From a virus, in the UHGV virus genome UHGV-0137562: a DNA stretch of 19,149 nucleotides, one strand, 5' to 3'. The notes under the pieces are model-generated. The model worked only from the letters and a program-made list of their open reading frames with translations. It had not been told where the DNA came from and made no database searches. The position numbers were made by a program, and so were the translations under genes. Every line of letters begins with the position of its first letter. Within the stretch, counting starts at the first letter, position 1. Positions 13,738 through 17,128 of this stretch are shown here, piece after piece.

Positions 13738-14376
13738 TTAATTGCGAATGGAATCGCGGAACTCTTTGCTTGATAGAAAAGGATCTGTTCTCCTTAACTC
13801 ATCATAGTTTTTATTAAACTTTCTTGCTTCACCTGGGTATCTGTTGAACAAAACATTGCAGAAAAAAGAGAGCAATAACTCACATATGAATGCTAATACC
13901 CTGAAAAATAAAGGTATAAAAAGAAGGGAAGGTTCATTGAAGTCTCTATTCCAAACAAAATAGACAATCATCCCGACATACCAAATTGATATCCCTATAC
14001 TGATGATTGTTCCAACAGAGGTAACTACGATCCCGATTAAGTCGGACAGTCTGTTTGCCAGTAACTCATTTGAGTATCTTGCAATCATATACCGCCAACA
14101 TTTTGCAATATCATCCTGATCTGTAGAGTCTTCTGGAATAGCTAGGCTTCTACATATTGAAGTAGCTCTTTTTTTCTCAACTCTTTTTGAGAGCCATCCA
14201 TTAAAGAGATACATCAACACCTGCGTTGCTATTCCTGCACCAAGTGATATCAAAGACATCCCCAAAAATCGCCATCCTGGAGATAGTGACTGGTACTGCC
14301 AAACAAAAAAAATTAAAAAACCCAATGAGCCTATGACATAGGCTGATGTATCGCTATATATATCTATTTTTTTCAT
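13738..14376 (-). CDS. Polytopic inner-membrane protein, candidate superinfection-exclusion (SieA-like) function, about 212 aa
   Basis: At least three long hydrophobic segments (GSLGFLIFFVWQY, GIVVTSVGTIISIGISIWYVGMIVYFVW, LLFIPLFFRVLAFICELLLSFFCNVLF). ATG at 14376 preceded by AAGGAG; the track start at 14409 is a GTG. AT-rich. Occupies the position where P22 carries sieA. Function inferred from position only. Confidence 0.5.
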   Translation of the reverse strand: MKKIDIYSDTSAYVIGSLGFLIFFVWQYQSLSPGWRFLGMSLISLGAGIATQVLMYLFNGWLSKRVEKKRATSICRSLAIPEDSTDQDDIAKCWRYMIARYSNELLANRLSDLIGIVVTSVGTIISIGISIWYVGMIVYFVWNRDFNEPSLLFIPLFFRVLAFICELLLSFFCNVLFNRYPGEARKFNKNYDELRRTDPFLSSKEFRDSIRN

Positions 14377-14426
14377 TGAGTAGCCACTCCTTAGTTTTGA
14401 GCAGAACACCGGATGATAATGTTTTG

Positions 14427-14678
14427 TTATGTGTCTTTTGGGATTCTATCCAGTAACTCGTTGGAAATTTTATCAAGTAAAGATTTTATTTGTTTAAGAT
14501 CTAATGATTTGTCTACTGATGAGACGTCAGATGATAACGCATCCTCAAGAATTTGAACTATCTCTGAGTTCATAGATCGACCGTTTCGTTTAGCCCTTTC
14601 CGCAATAGCACTACGCATGCCGTCAGGCATTCTAACCGTAAATCTTTCTATGAAATTTGATTCGTCTTTTTCTGACAT
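14427..14678 (-). CDS. Ribbon-helix-helix repressor of the Arc/Mnt family (Mnt-sized, 83 aa)
   Basis: FTVRMPDGMRSAIAERAKRNGRSMNSEIVQILEDAL fits the RHH beta-strand/helix A/helix B signature (compare Mnt FNFRMP...ANGRSMNSELLQIV). Start placed at ATG 14678; the upstream hydrophobic 16-aa extension to 14726 is considered unlikely. Confidence 0.72.
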   Translation of the reverse strand: MSEKDESNFIERFTVRMPDGMRSAIAERAKRNGRSMNSEIVQILEDALSSDVSSVDKSLDLKQIKSLLDKISNELLDRIPKDT

Positions 14679-14727
14679 TTTCTTATTCGCAAGGCATATG
14701 AGCAATAAAAAACACAGTAGCATCATA

Positions 14728-14755
14728 TTGACATTATGAGCAATGGCATCATAAT
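14728..14755 (+). promoter_or_regulatory. Near-consensus sigma70 promoter (TTGACA-N16-CATAAT) reading toward the Arc-like gene
   Basis: TTGACA at 14728-14733 and CATAAT at 14750-14755, separated by 16 nt. Predicted start falls at the edge of the 14762-14782 palindrome. Confidence 0.5.
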
Positions 14756-14761
14756 GGTGTC

Positions 14762-14782
14762 ATGACATCATGGTGATGTCAT
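14762..14782. promoter_or_regulatory. Perfect 9-bp inverted repeat (ATGACATCA-TGG-TGATGTCAT), candidate RHH operator
   Basis: 21-bp palindrome just downstream of the predicted -10, between the divergent RHH and Arc-like genes. Further TGACAT/ATGTCA and CATCAT half-site-like repeats lie at 14721-14790. Confidence 0.5.
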
Positions 14783-14798
14783 TATGACGGAGATATTG

Positions 14799-15048: not shown

Positions 15049-15687
15049 ATGAATATTGTAGCAAAATCAGATTATAACTTCCAAGGATTCACTTTTAACC
15101 CTGTAACAGAGGGCGGGTCTATCTGGTTTACCTCCACCGAACTAGCTAAGGCTCTCGGCTATAAAAAAACTGATGCCATCAGCCAAATTTATGCCCGTAA
15201 TGCTGACGAATTTTCCGACTCAATGTCATTGACCCTCAATATGAAGGTCAACGGAATAAACAATAGCTTACGTAACAAATCGGTCAGAGTTTACTCACTC
15301 CGAGGCGCTCACTTGGTGGCGATGTTTGCTTCTACGCCCAAGGCCAAAGAGTTCCGCCGCTGGGTGCTGGATATTTTGGATCGGCAGGCAGAATGCTCAC
15401 CGATTGCAAAACAGTTTACTGACGAAGAACTGGTTAATCTCTGCTACTTACAATTGTGGATGGAGAAGAGTCAACAAATGTGCAAACACATCTACCCAGG
15501 AATGAAGCAAATTGGTTCTGAGCTTTCTGGAAGGATTTACGATATTGCATATGAGACTCGCTACATGTCAGAAGAAACCAAGAAATCACTTCTTCGTGAA
15601 ATGAAGAATCTTGATCCCAACAATTTTGTCGTAAAGAACGCTCAGCCAATGCTGGCAAAACTTCGCGGCGAGGAATGGATTCATTGA
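15049..15687 (+). CDS. Bro-N domain antirepressor-like protein, 212 aa
   Basis: N-terminal region (FQGFTFNPVTEGGSIWFTSTELAKALGY ... LRGAHLVAMFASTPKAKEFRRWV) matches the Bro-N / AntA-type antirepressor fold signature, including the terminal A..F..WV motif. AAGGA RBS 7 nt upstream of ATG 15049. Lies directly downstream of the Arc-like gene, as ant does in P22. Confidence 0.72.
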   Translation: MNIVAKSDYNFQGFTFNPVTEGGSIWFTSTELAKALGYKKTDAISQIYARNADEFSDSMSLTLNMKVNGINNSLRNKSVRVYSLRGAHLVAMFASTPKAKEFRRWVLDILDRQAECSPIAKQFTDEELVNLCYLQLWMEKSQQMCKHIYPGMKQIGSELSGRIYDIAYETRYMSEETKKSLLREMKNLDPNNFVVKNAQPMLAKLRGEEWIH

Positions 15688-15774
15688 TTGGCGCACAGGA
15701 CGGCGCAAAAGAAAACCGCCAGTGTGCTGCTGGCGGCCTATGTCACACCCTTACTACCACATAAGGAATGCCTA

Positions 15775-16503
15775 ATGACTTTTAAGAATGTAGCAAACAT
15801 CGGATCCGTTGTCACGGATAAAACCATTGACAGCCAGCGCCTGCTTGAGATGGTAAATCAGGCTCGTAGACAGTGCGGTGAGCCGGAGGTTCGTAATAAC
15901 AAATTCATCGAGAAAATTGAAGATGAATTGGATGGAGAGCACTACACAAAAAGTGTAGTGCAAAAAGCGAACAAAACTTCGATGGTTATCATTGAGATGT
16001 CAATCAAGCAAGCATTGCGAGTTGCCGCTCGCGAGTCAAAAGCCGTTCGCCGCTCACTGGTAGACCAACTTGAAAGTATGCAAGAAGCGCACATTAAAAG
16101 CGGTAAATCAGCGAGTGGACTTGTTGAGTATCGCCAGGCGCGAACATTGAAAATGACGGTTGAAGCTGTTACCAATCTGTTCGATTTGATGCCAAATCTT
16201 GCGCCGGAAGCAAAGCAGACTGCAGCAGCAAGCATAATCAACCCGATCGTTGGTTTTAATGCAATACCTCTTCCAGCAATAGAAGAGCATTACTACTCAG
16301 CAGGGGAGGTTGCAGAGCAGCTTGGAGTAACGGCCAACAAGATTGGTCGCATTGCTAACGCAAACAACCTCAAAACTGAGCAGTACGGTAAGTTCTTCCT
16401 GGATAAATCTGCGCATTCCAGCAAACAGGTGGAAGCATTCCGCTACAATGCGGAAGGTGTTAAAGCACTACAACACCTGATTCATGGGAGTAATGTTGCA
16501 TAA
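15775..16503 (+). CDS. Hypothetical protein, 242 aa, possibly antirepressor-associated / DNA-binding
   Basis: ATG 15775 preceded by AAGGA with 7-nt spacing; the track start at 15688 is a TTG. C-terminal segment YYSAGEVAEQLGVTANKIGRIANANNLKTEQYGKFF looks helix-turn-helix-like. No confident family assignment. Confidence 0.5.
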   Translation: MTFKNVANIGSVVTDKTIDSQRLLEMVNQARRQCGEPEVRNNKFIEKIEDELDGEHYTKSVVQKANKTSMVIIEMSIKQALRVAARESKAVRRSLVDQLESMQEAHIKSGKSASGLVEYRQARTLKMTVEAVTNLFDLMPNLAPEAKQTAAASIINPIVGFNAIPLPAIEEHYYSAGEVAEQLGVTANKIGRIANANNLKTEQYGKFFLDKSAHSSKQVEAFRYNAEGVKALQHLIHGSNVA

Positions 16504-16724
16504 TGGCAAAGAAAAAATATGGCATTATGCCGCCAAGAATCAAAGGAAGAGCCAGGGTAAAAGGCGATGCTGGAAGGTATCACATTCTTGGAGTTCTGTG
16601 GCATGAGAGAGCTTTAATTTTAAGTAGACCTCATGGGTACATTGAAAAGGTATCTATAGATAGAGTAGAGATTCTTCCCCTTACACCTGAAGAAGAAGAA
16701 ACGTACGGACTTTTTGATAACTAA
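16503..16724 (+). CDS. Small hypothetical protein, 73 aa, translationally coupled to the upstream ORF
   Basis: ATG overlaps the upstream stop (TAATG at 16501-16505). Basic N-terminus (MAKKKYGIMPPRIKGRARVKGD), acidic C-terminus (TPEEEETYGLFDN). Followed directly by a terminator. Confidence 0.45.
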   Translation: MAKKKYGIMPPRIKGRARVKGDAGRYHILGVLWHERALILSRPHGYIEKVSIDRVEILPLTPEEEETYGLFDN

Positions 16725-16730
16725 CCAACT

Positions 16731-16756
16731 AAACCCGCTTAATCGCGGGTTTTTTC
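16731..16756. terminator. Bidirectional rho-independent terminator between convergent genes
   Basis: AAACCCGC-TTAATC-GCGGGTTT hairpin (8-bp stem) flanked by an A-run and a T-run (GCGGGTTTTTTCTTTTC). Sits between the 73-aa ORF (+) and the Mnt-like gene (-), overlapping the latter's stop codon. Confidence 0.65.
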
Positions 16757-16996
16757 TTTTCTAAGGATATCAGCCGCAACTTCTTTTACTCGTTCCGAGA
16801 TTAATGAGGCCAGCCTCTCTTCTTCATCACGATACCCGCTTACAGGTGATGGTTTGGAGAGTGATTCTTCCATCGTAGCCACAATTTCGGAATTGATAGA
16901 CCTGTTATTCATTTTTGCACGCTGCTTAATCTTAGCGTGCAACTCGTGCGTAAGCCTCAAGTGGAACTGCGCCTCATCGTATTTGCTGTACATCAT
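16739..16996 (-). CDS. mnt: Mnt repressor homolog (ribbon-helix-helix), about 85 aa
   Basis: FHLRLTHELHAKIKQRAKMNNRSINSEIVATMEESLSKPSPVSGYRDEEERLA closely parallels recalled P22 Mnt (FNFRMP...ANGRSMNSELLQIVQDALSKPSPVTGYRNDAERLA). Start placed at ATGATG 16996/16993, preceded by GGTGAGG; the longer track ORF to 17077 is considered a 5' over-extension. Confidence 0.82.
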   Translation of the reverse strand: MMYSKYDEAQFHLRLTHELHAKIKQRAKMNNRSINSEIVATMEESLSKPSPVSGYRDEEERLASLISERVKEVAADILRKEKTRD

Positions 16997-17128
16997 CAAT
17001 GCCTCACCAAATGGGTGGAATGGCATCGTAAAACCTACTGTACAAATCAACAATCGTACCGTTTCGGTATGTAACAAATACCAACCGTAGCCATGCTGCG
17101 GCTATTCCTTGTATCTGGAGCAAATTAA

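Follow-up and report, generated by a model that had tools for sequence, protein, structure and literature searches.

Gene content and base composition of the island

What fills the interval that separates gene 16 from the tailspike gene in this P22-like E. coli prophage, at the place where P22 has sieA, mnt, arc and ant, and how many separately controlled switches does it hold? In the window, by which the whole analysed stretch of 19,149 nucleotides (UHGV-0137562) is meant, the interval covers positions 13738-17128 and contains seven intact genes, three of them for ribbon-helix-helix (RHH) regulators.

13738-14376, minus strand: sieA, type B superinfection-exclusion inner-membrane protein, 212 aa (phrog_7745 'SieA-like', E 1.6e-20)
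14427-14678, minus strand: RHH1, Mnt-type RHH repressor of 83 aa with its own C-terminal helix (Pfam Arc, E 1.4e-17)
14802 (or 14799)-14975, plus strand: arc-like RHH gene, 57-58 aa, first of the rightward operon (Pfam Arc, E 8.7e-12)
15049-15687, plus strand: ant, antirepressor, 212 aa (Pfam Bro-N, E 1.3e-10, and P22_AR_C, E 2e-13)
15775-16503, plus strand: orf242, second antirepressor-like protein (P1 Ant-type N-domain and MerR-type winged-helix C-domain)
16503-16724, plus strand: orf73, small SH3-like protein, its start overlapping the orf242 stop
16739-16996, minus strand: mnt2, full-length Mnt orthologue, 85 aa (Arc, E 4e-15)
17129-18838: tailspike gene, faced by mnt2

The flanking gene 16 product is 75% identical to P22 gp16, the tailspike protein has a P22-type head-binding domain, and the database records nearest to the island are E. 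coli P22-like prophages and the phage JEP4 (Lederbergvirus). According to the initial annotation, the place of sieA-mnt-arc-ant in P22 is taken here by an immI-like accessory island that is expanded and has three RHH regulators, which agrees with the present analysis; all seven ORFs are found where it had placed them, and what its inventory overlooked are the antisense-RNA units. The island is also AT-richer than the flanking structural genes, as had been claimed, with a GC content of 42.3% compared with 47.1% (the lowest) to 51.5% in equal-sized windows of 3391 bp along 13.7 kb of structural genes, where the mean is 49.3%. The stretch with sieA, RHH1 and the promoter region, at 36%, and orf73, at 39.6%, have the lowest GC content, while arc, ant, orf242 and mnt2 lie at 43-47%.

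The island is likely a mosaic version, in three layers, of the secondary immunity region of P22-like phages. This hypervariable 'ant moron' has been described before, together with a drawing of the related version in the HS-1 prophage (Villafane 2008), and the HS record has sieA, ant, orf242 and mnt in common with the island. No well-studied phage carries exactly the same island.

A SieA-type exclusion protein

The first layer is the membrane protein, which by homology is a type B SieA. It shares 28% identity with P22 SieA over 148 aa (E 2e-23), its motif FNRYPGEARKFNK matches FxRYPxEAxxFNK, and 211 of its 212 residues are identical to those of HS1 SieA, which has been tested and excludes P22-like phages (Leavitt et al. 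2024). Through this near-identity exclusion by SieA is the only function in the island that goes back to experiment, and the protein, expressed from the prophage, would block DNA delivery by other P22-like phages.

A probable self-contained antirepressor cassette

The second layer appears to be a self-contained antirepressor cassette built like the immI region of P22, in which RHH1 is divergent from the arc-like gene. The control region between them has the following elements.

14715-14790: control region with overlapping divergent promoters and repeated operator half-sites
14728-14733 and 14750-14755, plus strand: Pant-like promoter, TTGACA and CATAAT with a 16 nt spacer
14749-14744 and 14727-14722, minus strand: promoter of RHH1, ATGCCA and TATGAT with a 16 nt spacer
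14762-14782: perfect 9-3-9 palindrome, ATGACATCA-TGG-TGATGTCAT

RHH1 is 55% identical to P22 Mnt in residues 7-44 only, that is, in the 38 residues of the RHH domain. The closer Mnt homologue is not this gene, described earlier as 'Mnt-sized', but the tailspike-facing mnt2. Salmonella, Citrobacter, Hafnia and Cronobacter have full-length homologues of RHH1 (81-82 aa, 56-79% identity), among which the C-terminal helix LDxKQIxxLLDxIxxE is kept. The arc-like protein shares 42% identity with P22 Arc and has near-identical counterparts at the same position in cassettes of Hafnia, Klebsiella and Yersinia.

The palindrome begins 6 nt past the -10 hexamer, which is the position of Omnt in P22. Its half-site, ATGRCATCA, is found five times in the window against 0.59 expected, and is kept in the Hafnia, Klebsiella and Yersinia cassettes with identical RHH and Arc recognition strands, whereas in a Salmonella cassette whose recognition strands differ the half-sites are changed as well. 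By positional analogy with P22 the palindrome is assigned to RHH1 and the sites at -35 and -10 to the Arc-like protein; the half-site spacings of 25, 19 and 9 bp do not fit the 21-bp Arc operator. In the lysogen RHH1 would be made from the leftward promoter, probably together with sieA, and would keep the overlapping rightward promoter shut via the palindrome at its start site. Upon infection, or when RHH1 is absent, the rightward promoter would fire and give the Arc-like protein, Ant, ORF242 and ORF73, after which the Arc-like protein would close the promoter again.

Predicted antisense units in front of ant and orf242

The Ant protein matches the PHROG 'anti-repressor Ant' (E 5e-50), is 29% identical to residues 206-274 of P22 Ant, and its gene shares 95% DNA identity with that of Salmonella phage SPN3UB. 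The N-terminal domain is of the Bro-N type in contrast to the AntA-type domain of P22 Ant, which suggests that its target may differ from that of the P22 protein. Both ant and orf242 are preceded by elements of an antisense unit.

14974-15084, minus strand: sar-like cis-antisense RNA unit, aligning with the annotated P22 sar region
15084-15079 and 15060-15055, minus strand: its promoter, TTGGAA and TACAAT with an 18 nt spacer and an extended TG
~15048 to 14975, minus strand: predicted sar-like RNA, spanning the ant ribosome-binding site
15017-14983, minus strand: stem of its terminator, followed by a U-run
15707-15815, minus strand: predicted sar2, second sar-like antisense unit, with conserved promoter and terminator
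15815-15810 and 15792-15787, minus strand: sar2 promoter, GTGACA and TACATT with a 17 nt spacer and an extended TG
~15780 to 15709, minus strand: predicted sar2 RNA, spanning the orf242 start codon and ribosome-binding site
15715-15707, minus strand: U-run that follows the sar2 terminator, CCGCCAG/CTGGCGG

By its alignment the first unit is homologous to the P22 sar region, the RNA itself being predicted. Its fold has a z-score of -4.8, and the terminator hairpin is kept in eight sequences with four pairs changed on both sides and with G-U pairs that are only possible in the minus-strand RNA. An Rfam search of the window gave no match. The sar2 unit is a new prediction from sequence conservation: its promoter hexamers and terminator are kept in seven loci of four genera, even in cassettes where an unrelated ORF6N gene replaces orf242, and the window has just two copies of the motif TGCTAYAWT, one at the 5′ end of ant and one at that of orf242, both on the minus strand. 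As the sar2 stem does not vary, covariation lends it no support, and its fold z-score is only -1.9. These short antisense RNAs would limit translation of the genes they precede.

A second antirepressor-like protein

The N-terminal domain of ORF242 is 66% identical to residues 112-206 of P1 Ant1, the core of Ant1/Ant2, and the database record of the P1 proteins describes a complex with the C1 repressor. Antirepressor-like fold matches were also obtained, and orf242 adjoins P22_AR_C-type antirepressor genes in P22-like, siphovirus and Stx2a prophages. ORF242 is best described as an antirepressor-like protein, with a DNA-binding C-terminal domain that suits a transcription factor equally well. 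The best structural matches of that domain are DNA-binding winged helices (pSK1 Par, RacA, the MerR family, Xis), there are weak HTH matches in Pfam and PADLOC, and the label 'antirepressor' in PHROGs and in Stx phage records is no more than an annotation. Alone or together with ORF73, ORF242 could instead be a DNA-binding regulator that is merely co-expressed with Ant, for example an activator of the MerR/Xis type, a recombination directionality factor, or a regulator of the KilA/Rha type that acts on phage or host promoters. We regard this as rather unlikely, in view of the close match to the P1 core, of its own predicted sar-like control, and of its place in an antirepressor slot that in sister cassettes is occupied by ORF6N or pRha 'antirepressor-type' genes. 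In the preferred reading Ant, with its Bro-N domain and P22 Ant C-domain, and ORF242, with its P1 Ant N-domain and winged helix, would each bind and inactivate repressors of resident prophages, probably of different types.

The last gene of the operon, orf73, encodes a rare orphan protein of SH3-like fold and exists in frameshifted variants as well. It is separated from the convergent mnt2 gene by a terminator that should be usable in both directions because of the A-run on its opposite side.

16731-16752: terminator between orf73 and mnt2, AAACCCGC-TTAATC-GCGGGTTT, followed by a T-run

Morons often house defence or anti-defence genes, and the initial annotation had looked to this island for an undescribed exclusion or anti-defence system. 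That expectation is not supported: SieA is nearly identical to an already tested protein, the region has been known as an 'ant moron' since 2008, and the defence-model search of the island genes including PADLOC gave nothing above noise, the match of the Bro-N protein to the PADLOC candidate PDC-S05 being marginal (E 0.002). A new role in defence or anti-defence, such as inhibition of a host immune system or abortion of infection by other phages, is improbable for the orphan ORF73, for ORF242 and for the Bro-N protein. Apart from orf73, all genes can be assigned conventionally to immI or SieA, and an operon built for silence in the lysogen is ill-suited to a defence expressed from the prophage.

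The mnt2 unit next to the tailspike gene

The third layer, mnt2 with an operator and a promoter of its own, appears to be an ancestral unit of mnt and Omnt that adjoins gene 9 and that many P22-like phages retain in the absence of ant. Mnt2 matches residues 4-76 of P22 Mnt at 47% identity, a span that takes in the C-terminal oligomerisation part and the sequence SKPSPVSGYR, and differs from the HS-1 prophage Mnt in a single residue; homologues are found in 88 phage records, the matches listed being P22-like phages.

17020-17071: mnt2 control region, at a position homologous to P22 Pmnt/Pant/Omnt
17055-17071: Omnt2, CGTACCGTTTCGGTATG, 17-bp palindrome at the place of P22 Omnt
17053-17048 and 17030-17025, minus strand: Pmnt2, TTGTTG and TACGAT with a 17 nt spacer
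17085-17128, plus strand: 'boundary sequence' hairpin CCGTAGCCATGCTGCGG and gene 9 leader

In an alignment with the island, P22, L, ST160, Sf101 and HS have a 17-bp palindrome at the same place, and it co-varies with the recognition strand of Mnt (HFNFRM with GTCCACGGTGGAC, QFNLRL with GACCACCGTGGTC and QFHLRL with TACCGTTTCGGTA). Other phages have the boundary sequence in front of gene 9 as well: it is duplicated in P22, and present in L and CUS-3, where it is annotated as bsq1. The rightward Pant hexamers beside Omnt2 are degenerate (ATGGCA and CAAATC), and for this reason Mnt2 may have itself as its only remaining target. Most likely it autoregulates and also silences either a rightward promoter that has decayed or read-through towards the tailspike gene; in incoming phages, matching ant promoters may be repressed by it as well.

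The doubled repressors had been taken to suggest two separately controlled switches. Two promoter/operator regions with unrelated operators are indeed present, but antirepressor genes are under the control of the first alone. The other belongs to the mnt–Omnt–gene 9 unit, which L, ST64T, ST160 and Sf101 have without an ant gene, and Mnt2 controls no antirepressor. The two repressors are both Mnt homologues (44% identity in the RHH domain), and the promoter region of mnt2 includes one related half-site, ATGGCATCG, which might suggest that Mnt2 reaches the 14728-14762 promoter in trans and that both feed one antirepressor operon. Such an arrangement is quite improbable, since the recognition strands are unlike (ERFTVRM vs AQFHLRL), the single Mnt2-type operator found in the window is the one beside mnt2, HS-1 and JEP4 retain mnt2 despite a completely different ant promoter region, and Sf101, L and ST160 retain mnt with no ant gene at all.

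It is highly improbable that the island is a remnant in decay, with RHH1 as a truncated pseudogene, a relic Mnt2 and an operon that has lost its regulation or function. PGAP does mark RHH1 as a pseudogene or incomplete in strains T2 and UTAK-1, a call that is probably wrong given the full-length homologues with the conserved C-terminal helix in several genera. The rightward promoter beside Omnt2 is degenerate, frameshifted variants of orf73 exist, and IS insertions and deletions are frequent in relatives. But the seven ORFs are all intact here, other genera have kept the operators, promoters and terminators, and the island is found on separate 39.9-kb circular records that resemble excised phage genomes.

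Comparison with known systems

The island shares with P22 immI its position in the genome, sieA adjoining gene 16, the Mnt-type RHH gene divergent from an arc–ant operon, overlapping promoters with a palindrome at the start site, the homologous sar region and the P22_AR_C domain of Ant. In contrast to P22, the N-domain of Ant is Bro-N, RHH1 resembles Mnt only in the RHH domain, the operator sequences are unrelated, SieA is of type B, ant is followed by orf242 and orf73, and beside gene 9 there is a second mnt, full-length and with an operator of its own. In P22 the orf242-type gene is reduced to a fossil of ~50 nt.

The HS-1 'ant moron' has a SieA that differs by one amino acid and an orf242 disrupted by IS3, and JEP4 has both orf242 and orf73. 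Both have mnt2 with the boundary sequence, and from the arc stop codon on their ant is 95% identical, except for the Bro-N part. However, sharp joints at 14422/14423 and 14968/14969 delimit a block (14423-14968; RHH1, promoter and arc) that in both is replaced by a repressor with HTH and peptidase S24 domains (CI/LexA-like), another promoter and a small, unrelated RHH gene, which predicts a different, possibly SOS-linked, control there. This exchange of the regulatory cassette as a block is new here. A natural recombinant between RHH1 and Mnt2 also occurs, in which everything between the two genes is lost.

The immI region of P1 resembles the island in the N-domain of ORF242 and in having an antirepressor operon under antisense RNA, here predicted; ORF242 has a MerR-type winged helix in place of the KilAC (ANT) domain of Ant1/Ant2, and the island is without c4 RNA and the icd gene. 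The mnt-only morons of L/ST64T, ST160/SE1 and Sf101 likewise have mnt divergent from gene 9 and a 17-bp palindrome at the Omnt position of P22, and since CUS-3 has two tandem mnt genes, a doubled mnt is not new. The island differs from them in the complete second antirepressor cassette upstream of the mnt–gene 9 unit.

Finally, we report for the first time that the cassette is also carried by siphovirus prophages, in the four genera Salmonella (SPN3UB-like), Hafnia, Yersinia and Klebsiella. There it lies between tail genes elsewhere in the late operon, without sieA and mnt2, but with the same RHH–arc–Bro-N ant order, the same control region of 117-118 bp, in which the half-sites are also the same, elements resembling sar and sar2, and a second gene that is either an orf242 homologue or an ORF6N/pRha gene.

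Setting and gene content

The window comes from an E. coli prophage of P22-like type (Lederbergvirus) and comprises its late region. Its island at 13738-17128 lies between homologues of gene 16 (11875-13716, the product being 75% identical to P22 gp16 in a protein comparison) and gene 9, the tailspike gene (17129-18838, with a P22-type head-binding domain, 75% identity over 117 residues). This is the position of immI, the secondary immunity region of P22, and the synteny is kept in strain T2, in the related Lederbergvirus phage JEP4 and in HS (also HS-1 or HS1), the P22-like prophage of E. 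coli HS. Seven intact ORFs are present between gene 16 and the tailspike gene, all of them where the initial annotation had placed them.

Genes of the island with their Pfam/PHROGs assignments, followed by the antisense RNA units
13738-14376, minus strand: sieA, membrane protein, SieA-like
14427-14678, minus strand: RHH1, Arc-family ribbon-helix-helix protein (Mnt-type, 83 aa)
14802 (or 14799)-14975, plus strand: arc-like gene, Arc-family ribbon-helix-helix protein
15049-15687, plus strand: ant, Bro-N and P22_AR_C antirepressor
15775-16503, plus strand: orf242, PHROG "anti-repressor", without a Pfam family
16503-16724, plus strand: orf73, PHROG of function unknown
16739-16996, minus strand: mnt2, Arc-family ribbon-helix-helix protein (second Mnt homologue, 85 aa)
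14974-15084, minus strand: sar, putative antisense RNA unit opposite the start of ant
15707-15815, minus strand: sar2, predicted antisense RNA unit opposite the start of orf242

A search against NCBIfam returned only generic ribbon-helix-helix (RHH) matches. The island had been described as richer in AT than its flanks, and its GC content is indeed 42.3%, against 47.1%-51.5% in equal-sized windows of structural genes, with the minimum (36%) in sieA, RHH1 and the promoter region.

Two further AT-rich stretches were observed in the window. At 17474-19149 the receptor-binding part of the tailspike gene has 38.8% GC and the sequence beyond it 33.4%, both as low as the island; past residue 117 there is no relation to P22 gp9, which indicates a swapped receptor-binding module. 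On the opposite (minus) strand at 3871-4392, between a scaffold-like gene (2959-3870) and a coat-like gene (4460-5755), lies an ORF of 173 aa. It has an HNH-type motif (DHINGIRHDNRIENLRL) and 38.7% GC, and has the appearance of a homing-endonuclease gene inserted among the head genes.

The sieA gene

The sieA product is 28% identical to P22 SieA and considerably longer (212 versus 164 residues), the alignment beginning at residue 44. Type B SieA proteins are defined by an N-terminal extension of about 30 residues relative to P22 SieA and by the motif FxRYPxEAxxFNK (Leavitt 2024, PMC10883804), and both an extra N-terminal segment and a fitting motif, FNRYPGEARKFNK, are found here. The protein differs by one residue from HS1 SieA, which Leavitt et al. 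2024 (PMC10883804) cloned and found to exclude P22, L as well as hybrid phages. On the basis of this near identity the sieA product would likewise be expected to exclude P22-like phages, and the gene therefore counts as already characterised. No separate sieA promoter was resolved in the 46 bp common with HS.

The RHH1–arc–ant switch

The overall design of the left-hand switch appears to follow that of immI, with an Mnt-type RHH gene divergent from an arc–ant operon and with overlapping predicted promoters and operators that are kept across genera. The rightward promoter predicted in the RHH1–arc spacer is near consensus (TTGACA, 16 nt, CATAAT), and it overlaps a predicted leftward promoter, an arrangement known from Pant and Pmnt of P22. 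The position 6 nt past the rightward -10, exactly where Omnt starts relative to the promoter in P22, is the beginning of a perfect 9-3-9 palindrome, ATGACATCA-TGG-TGATGTCAT. Related half-sites overlap the -35 and -10 elements, and the window contains five copies of ATGRCATCA where 0.59 would be expected. RHH1 homologues from Hafnia, Klebsiella and Yersinia have identical recognition strands (ERFTVRMP; SFQLRLP in the arc product), and their cassettes keep the same sites with a variable palindrome centre, whereas a Salmonella cassette with differing recognition strands carries different repeats, GGCAT(A/T)AT. Sites that are kept with the same strands and changed with different ones would be the footprint expected of real operators; which protein would bind which site is assigned solely by analogy with P22.

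RHH1 and Ant resemble their P22 counterparts only in part. RHH1 aligns with Mnt over residues 12-49 only and has no match to the Mnt C-terminal oligomerisation region; its C-terminal helix is part of a separate 82-aa family. That RHH1 might be a pseudogene, as called by PGAP, is contradicted by full-length homologues of 81-82 aa with a conserved C-terminal helix in several genera, and the "incomplete" flag probably stems from comparison with longer relatives. Ant matches P22 Ant in the C-terminal P22_AR_C domain (29% identity) and not along its whole length, its N-terminal domain being Bro-N. Binding and inactivation of C2/CI-type repressors, the function that characterises the immI antirepressor, is a predicted role for Ant by analogy.

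Predicted antisense RNAs

The arc–ant junction aligns with the annotated sar region of P22, which points to a corresponding antisense RNA. In ant codons 3-5 there is a leftward promoter whose -10 is extended (TGCTACAAT), placed as the sar promoter of P22 is. Eight sequences retain the terminator hairpin, four base pairs of which have changed on both sides; its G-U pairs are strand-specific, since the opposite strand would have A-C mismatches in their place. The predicted RNA is 74 nt long (fold z = -4.8). Rfam at a permissive threshold gave no match in the window, and sar was thus found by the P22 alignment alone.

The same region offers an in-frame ATG at 14965 from which a 240-aa Ant could start, and 14965-15048 displays apparent peptide conservation across genera (SKN.E.R.CANT.RAS). 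This longer Ant was dropped, as the sar terminator encoded on the other strand accounts better for the conserved "peptide". Gene callers take the equivalent start in Salmonella and Klebsiella relatives, whose ant annotations are for the same reason probably over-extended.

A second unit of the same design, sar2, is predicted to precede orf242. Its promoter (GTGACA, 17 nt, TACATT; TGCTACATT) is located in orf242 codons 5-7, and from a predicted start at about 15780 the RNA would span the orf242 start codon and ribosome-binding site before reaching a strong, leftward-only terminator (CCGCCAG/CTGGCGG and a U-run). Within the window TGCTAYAWT occurs only at the sar and sar2 promoters. Seven loci from four genera share the sar2 hexamers and terminator, including loci where an unrelated ORF6N gene replaces orf242. 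As the stem is invariant, it provides no covariation evidence, and the fold is less distinctive (z = -1.9); the sar2 RNA is accordingly a good prediction from sequence rather than a finding.

mnt2 and the gene 9 side

As judged from its sequence, mnt2 is a true Mnt orthologue, possessing both the RHH and the C-terminal oligomerisation region with 47% identity over Mnt residues 4-76, almost the whole protein. A 17-bp palindromic operator candidate, CGTACCGTTTCGGTATG, unique in the window, lies beside its predicted promoter at the position of Omnt in P22. Base for base, the sequence upstream of mnt2 can be aligned with P22 Pmnt/Pant/Omnt and with the spacers that separate mnt from gene 9 in L, ST160, Sf101 and HS; every aligned phage has a 17-bp palindrome at the Omnt position, which co-varies with the Mnt recognition strand. 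The rightward promoter hexamers next to the mnt2 operator are degenerate. An action of Mnt2 on the ant promoter was rejected, as no matching operator is present there.

The mnt–gene 9 unit occurs without an ant gene in Sf101, L/ST64T and ST160, and it is kept in HS-1 and JEP4 although the ant promoter is unrelated. Hence mnt2 is part of an older unit tied to gene 9 and not of the antirepressor operon. Two annotated mnt genes were already known in CUS-3.

Just upstream of the tailspike ribosome-binding site, at 17085-17101, a boundary sequence with a conserved hairpin (CCGTAGCCATGCTGCGG) was observed. It is duplicated in P22 (NC_002371, about 6045-6065 and 6170-6190), is annotated as bsq1 in CUS-3, and may serve either as a joint for recombination or as an RNA element in the expression of gene 9.

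ORF242 and ORF73

The ORF242 family, for which Pfam has no model, numbers more than 2000 protein clusters in Enterobacterales. Its residues 14-106 are 66% identical to residues 112-206 of phage P1 Ant1, a segment that forms the start of Ant2 and lies upstream of the KilAC domain. In P1 Ant1 the KilAC domain (PF03374) matches at residues 234-336, whereas ORF242 has no ANT or KilAC match, and it does not share the N-domain plus KilAC organisation of Ant1/Ant2. Searches of ORF242 and ORF73 gave no match among PDB sequences and only noise in Pfam at E up to 1. Antirepressor and KilA proteins rank first in a Foldseek comparison with viral models. Over 100 records of Stx2a phages have a full-length relative with about 60% identity adjoining an AntA and P22_AR_C antirepressor, and such relatives also lie downstream of Bro-N antirepressors in siphovirus cassettes. 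We read ORF242 as a likely second antirepressor-type protein; a serious alternative is that it is a DNA-binding regulator. A paper on the Φ24B antirepressor was considered as describing a characterised relative and dropped, the Φ24B protein being of the P22 Ant C-domain type and not of that of ORF242.

A fossil of an orf242-type gene (ELEGETYKKIVGRKANKIT), about 50-54 nt long, was noticed in P22 itself, where NC_002371 6070-6123 corresponds to 15923-15978 of the window. It is situated in the "non-coding" spacer from the ant terminator to gene 9 with a copy of the boundary sequence on each side, and many E. coli P22-like prophages carry the same short fragment unannotated.

The start of orf73 overlaps the stop of orf242. 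Close relatives of ORF73 form just eight clusters. A remote family comprises ten representatives that share a conserved motif, and the genome contexts of remote relatives are those of ordinary small genes of phage early regions and gave no functional clue.

Distribution and mosaicism

Among 5426 complete E. coli genomes, 16 have the whole island (96-99% identity) and about 1070 have parts of it; its right two thirds recur in JEP4 at 96% identity. The gene 16–gene 9 interval of P22-like phages is variable and has been termed the "ant moron", with ten types in sixteen genomes, and the HS-1 version has been drawn (Villafane et al. 2008, PMC2629481). The HS-1 region and the window share sieA, most of ant, and mnt, while orf242 of HS-1 is disrupted by IS3. 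In both HS-1 and JEP4 the block at 14423-14968 (RHH1, promoters, arc) is cleanly replaced by an HTH and peptidase S24 repressor with a different promoter and by a small RHH gene unrelated to those of the window.

These HTH_3 and peptidase S24 repressor genes (3342-3983 of the HS locus, 3093-3662 of the JEP4 locus) are divergent from the same ant operon. Their products are CI/LexA-like and potentially self-cleaving, which would couple antirepressor expression to the SOS response in the sister morons.

The RHH1-type block was found in 24 of the 5426 genomes and the orf242–orf73 block in 53. One genome (E. coli GCA_050033335.1, protein P0135, locus 5001-5246) has a hybrid gene with the N-terminus of Mnt2 and the C-terminus of RHH1, joined at the shared NSEIV codons, and lacks the arc–ant–orf242–orf73 segment; here the two paralogous repressor genes have recombined with each other and the DNA between them was deleted.

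In two E. coli assemblies from wastewater the island also occurs on separate records of 39.9 kb that are listed as plasmids (NZ_CP146561.1 and NZ_CP146567.1). They probably represent the genome of this phage type in its excised, circular form, suggesting an active prophage.

Comparison with known systems

The initial annotation described an expanded immI-like island; the description is correct and the name fair. Its proposal that an undescribed exclusion, anti-repressor or anti-defence system resides here did not hold up: sieA corresponds to a tested gene, the core is built as a switch of the P22 type, the extra Mnt belongs to an ancestral unit, and PADLOC gave no significant defence match for the island genes, two marginal ones (E 0.002-0.004) involving generic domains. 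What is new is modest, namely the stacking of a second antirepressor-like gene, for which a separate antisense RNA is predicted, the exchange of a regulatory cassette en bloc, and the presence of the cassette in siphoviruses of several genera.

A bolder reading, which we consider rather unlikely, would make RHH1–arc–ant–orf242 an unrecognised mobile "dual antirepressor" cassette that travels between the late operons of podoviruses and siphoviruses across Enterobacterales, with one cis-antisense RNA for each antirepressor gene (sar and the predicted sar2) and with ORF242 as a new class (P1 Ant N-domain plus winged helix) acting on a repressor family other than that of Ant. If so, a single phage, whether incoming or induced, could activate several resident prophages that are unrelated. 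Antirepressor modules set whether resident prophages stay silent upon the arrival or induction of another phage, and thereby affect the spread of prophage-borne toxin and virulence genes.

Relative to the P22 paradigm, the repressor pair and its operators are swapped as a block with a CI/LexA-like alternative, antirepressor genes are stackable with apparently one antisense brake each, and the "orphan" mnt genes of many P22-like phages are the conserved core that receives such cassettes. These points refine known biology and do not amount to a new kind of system.
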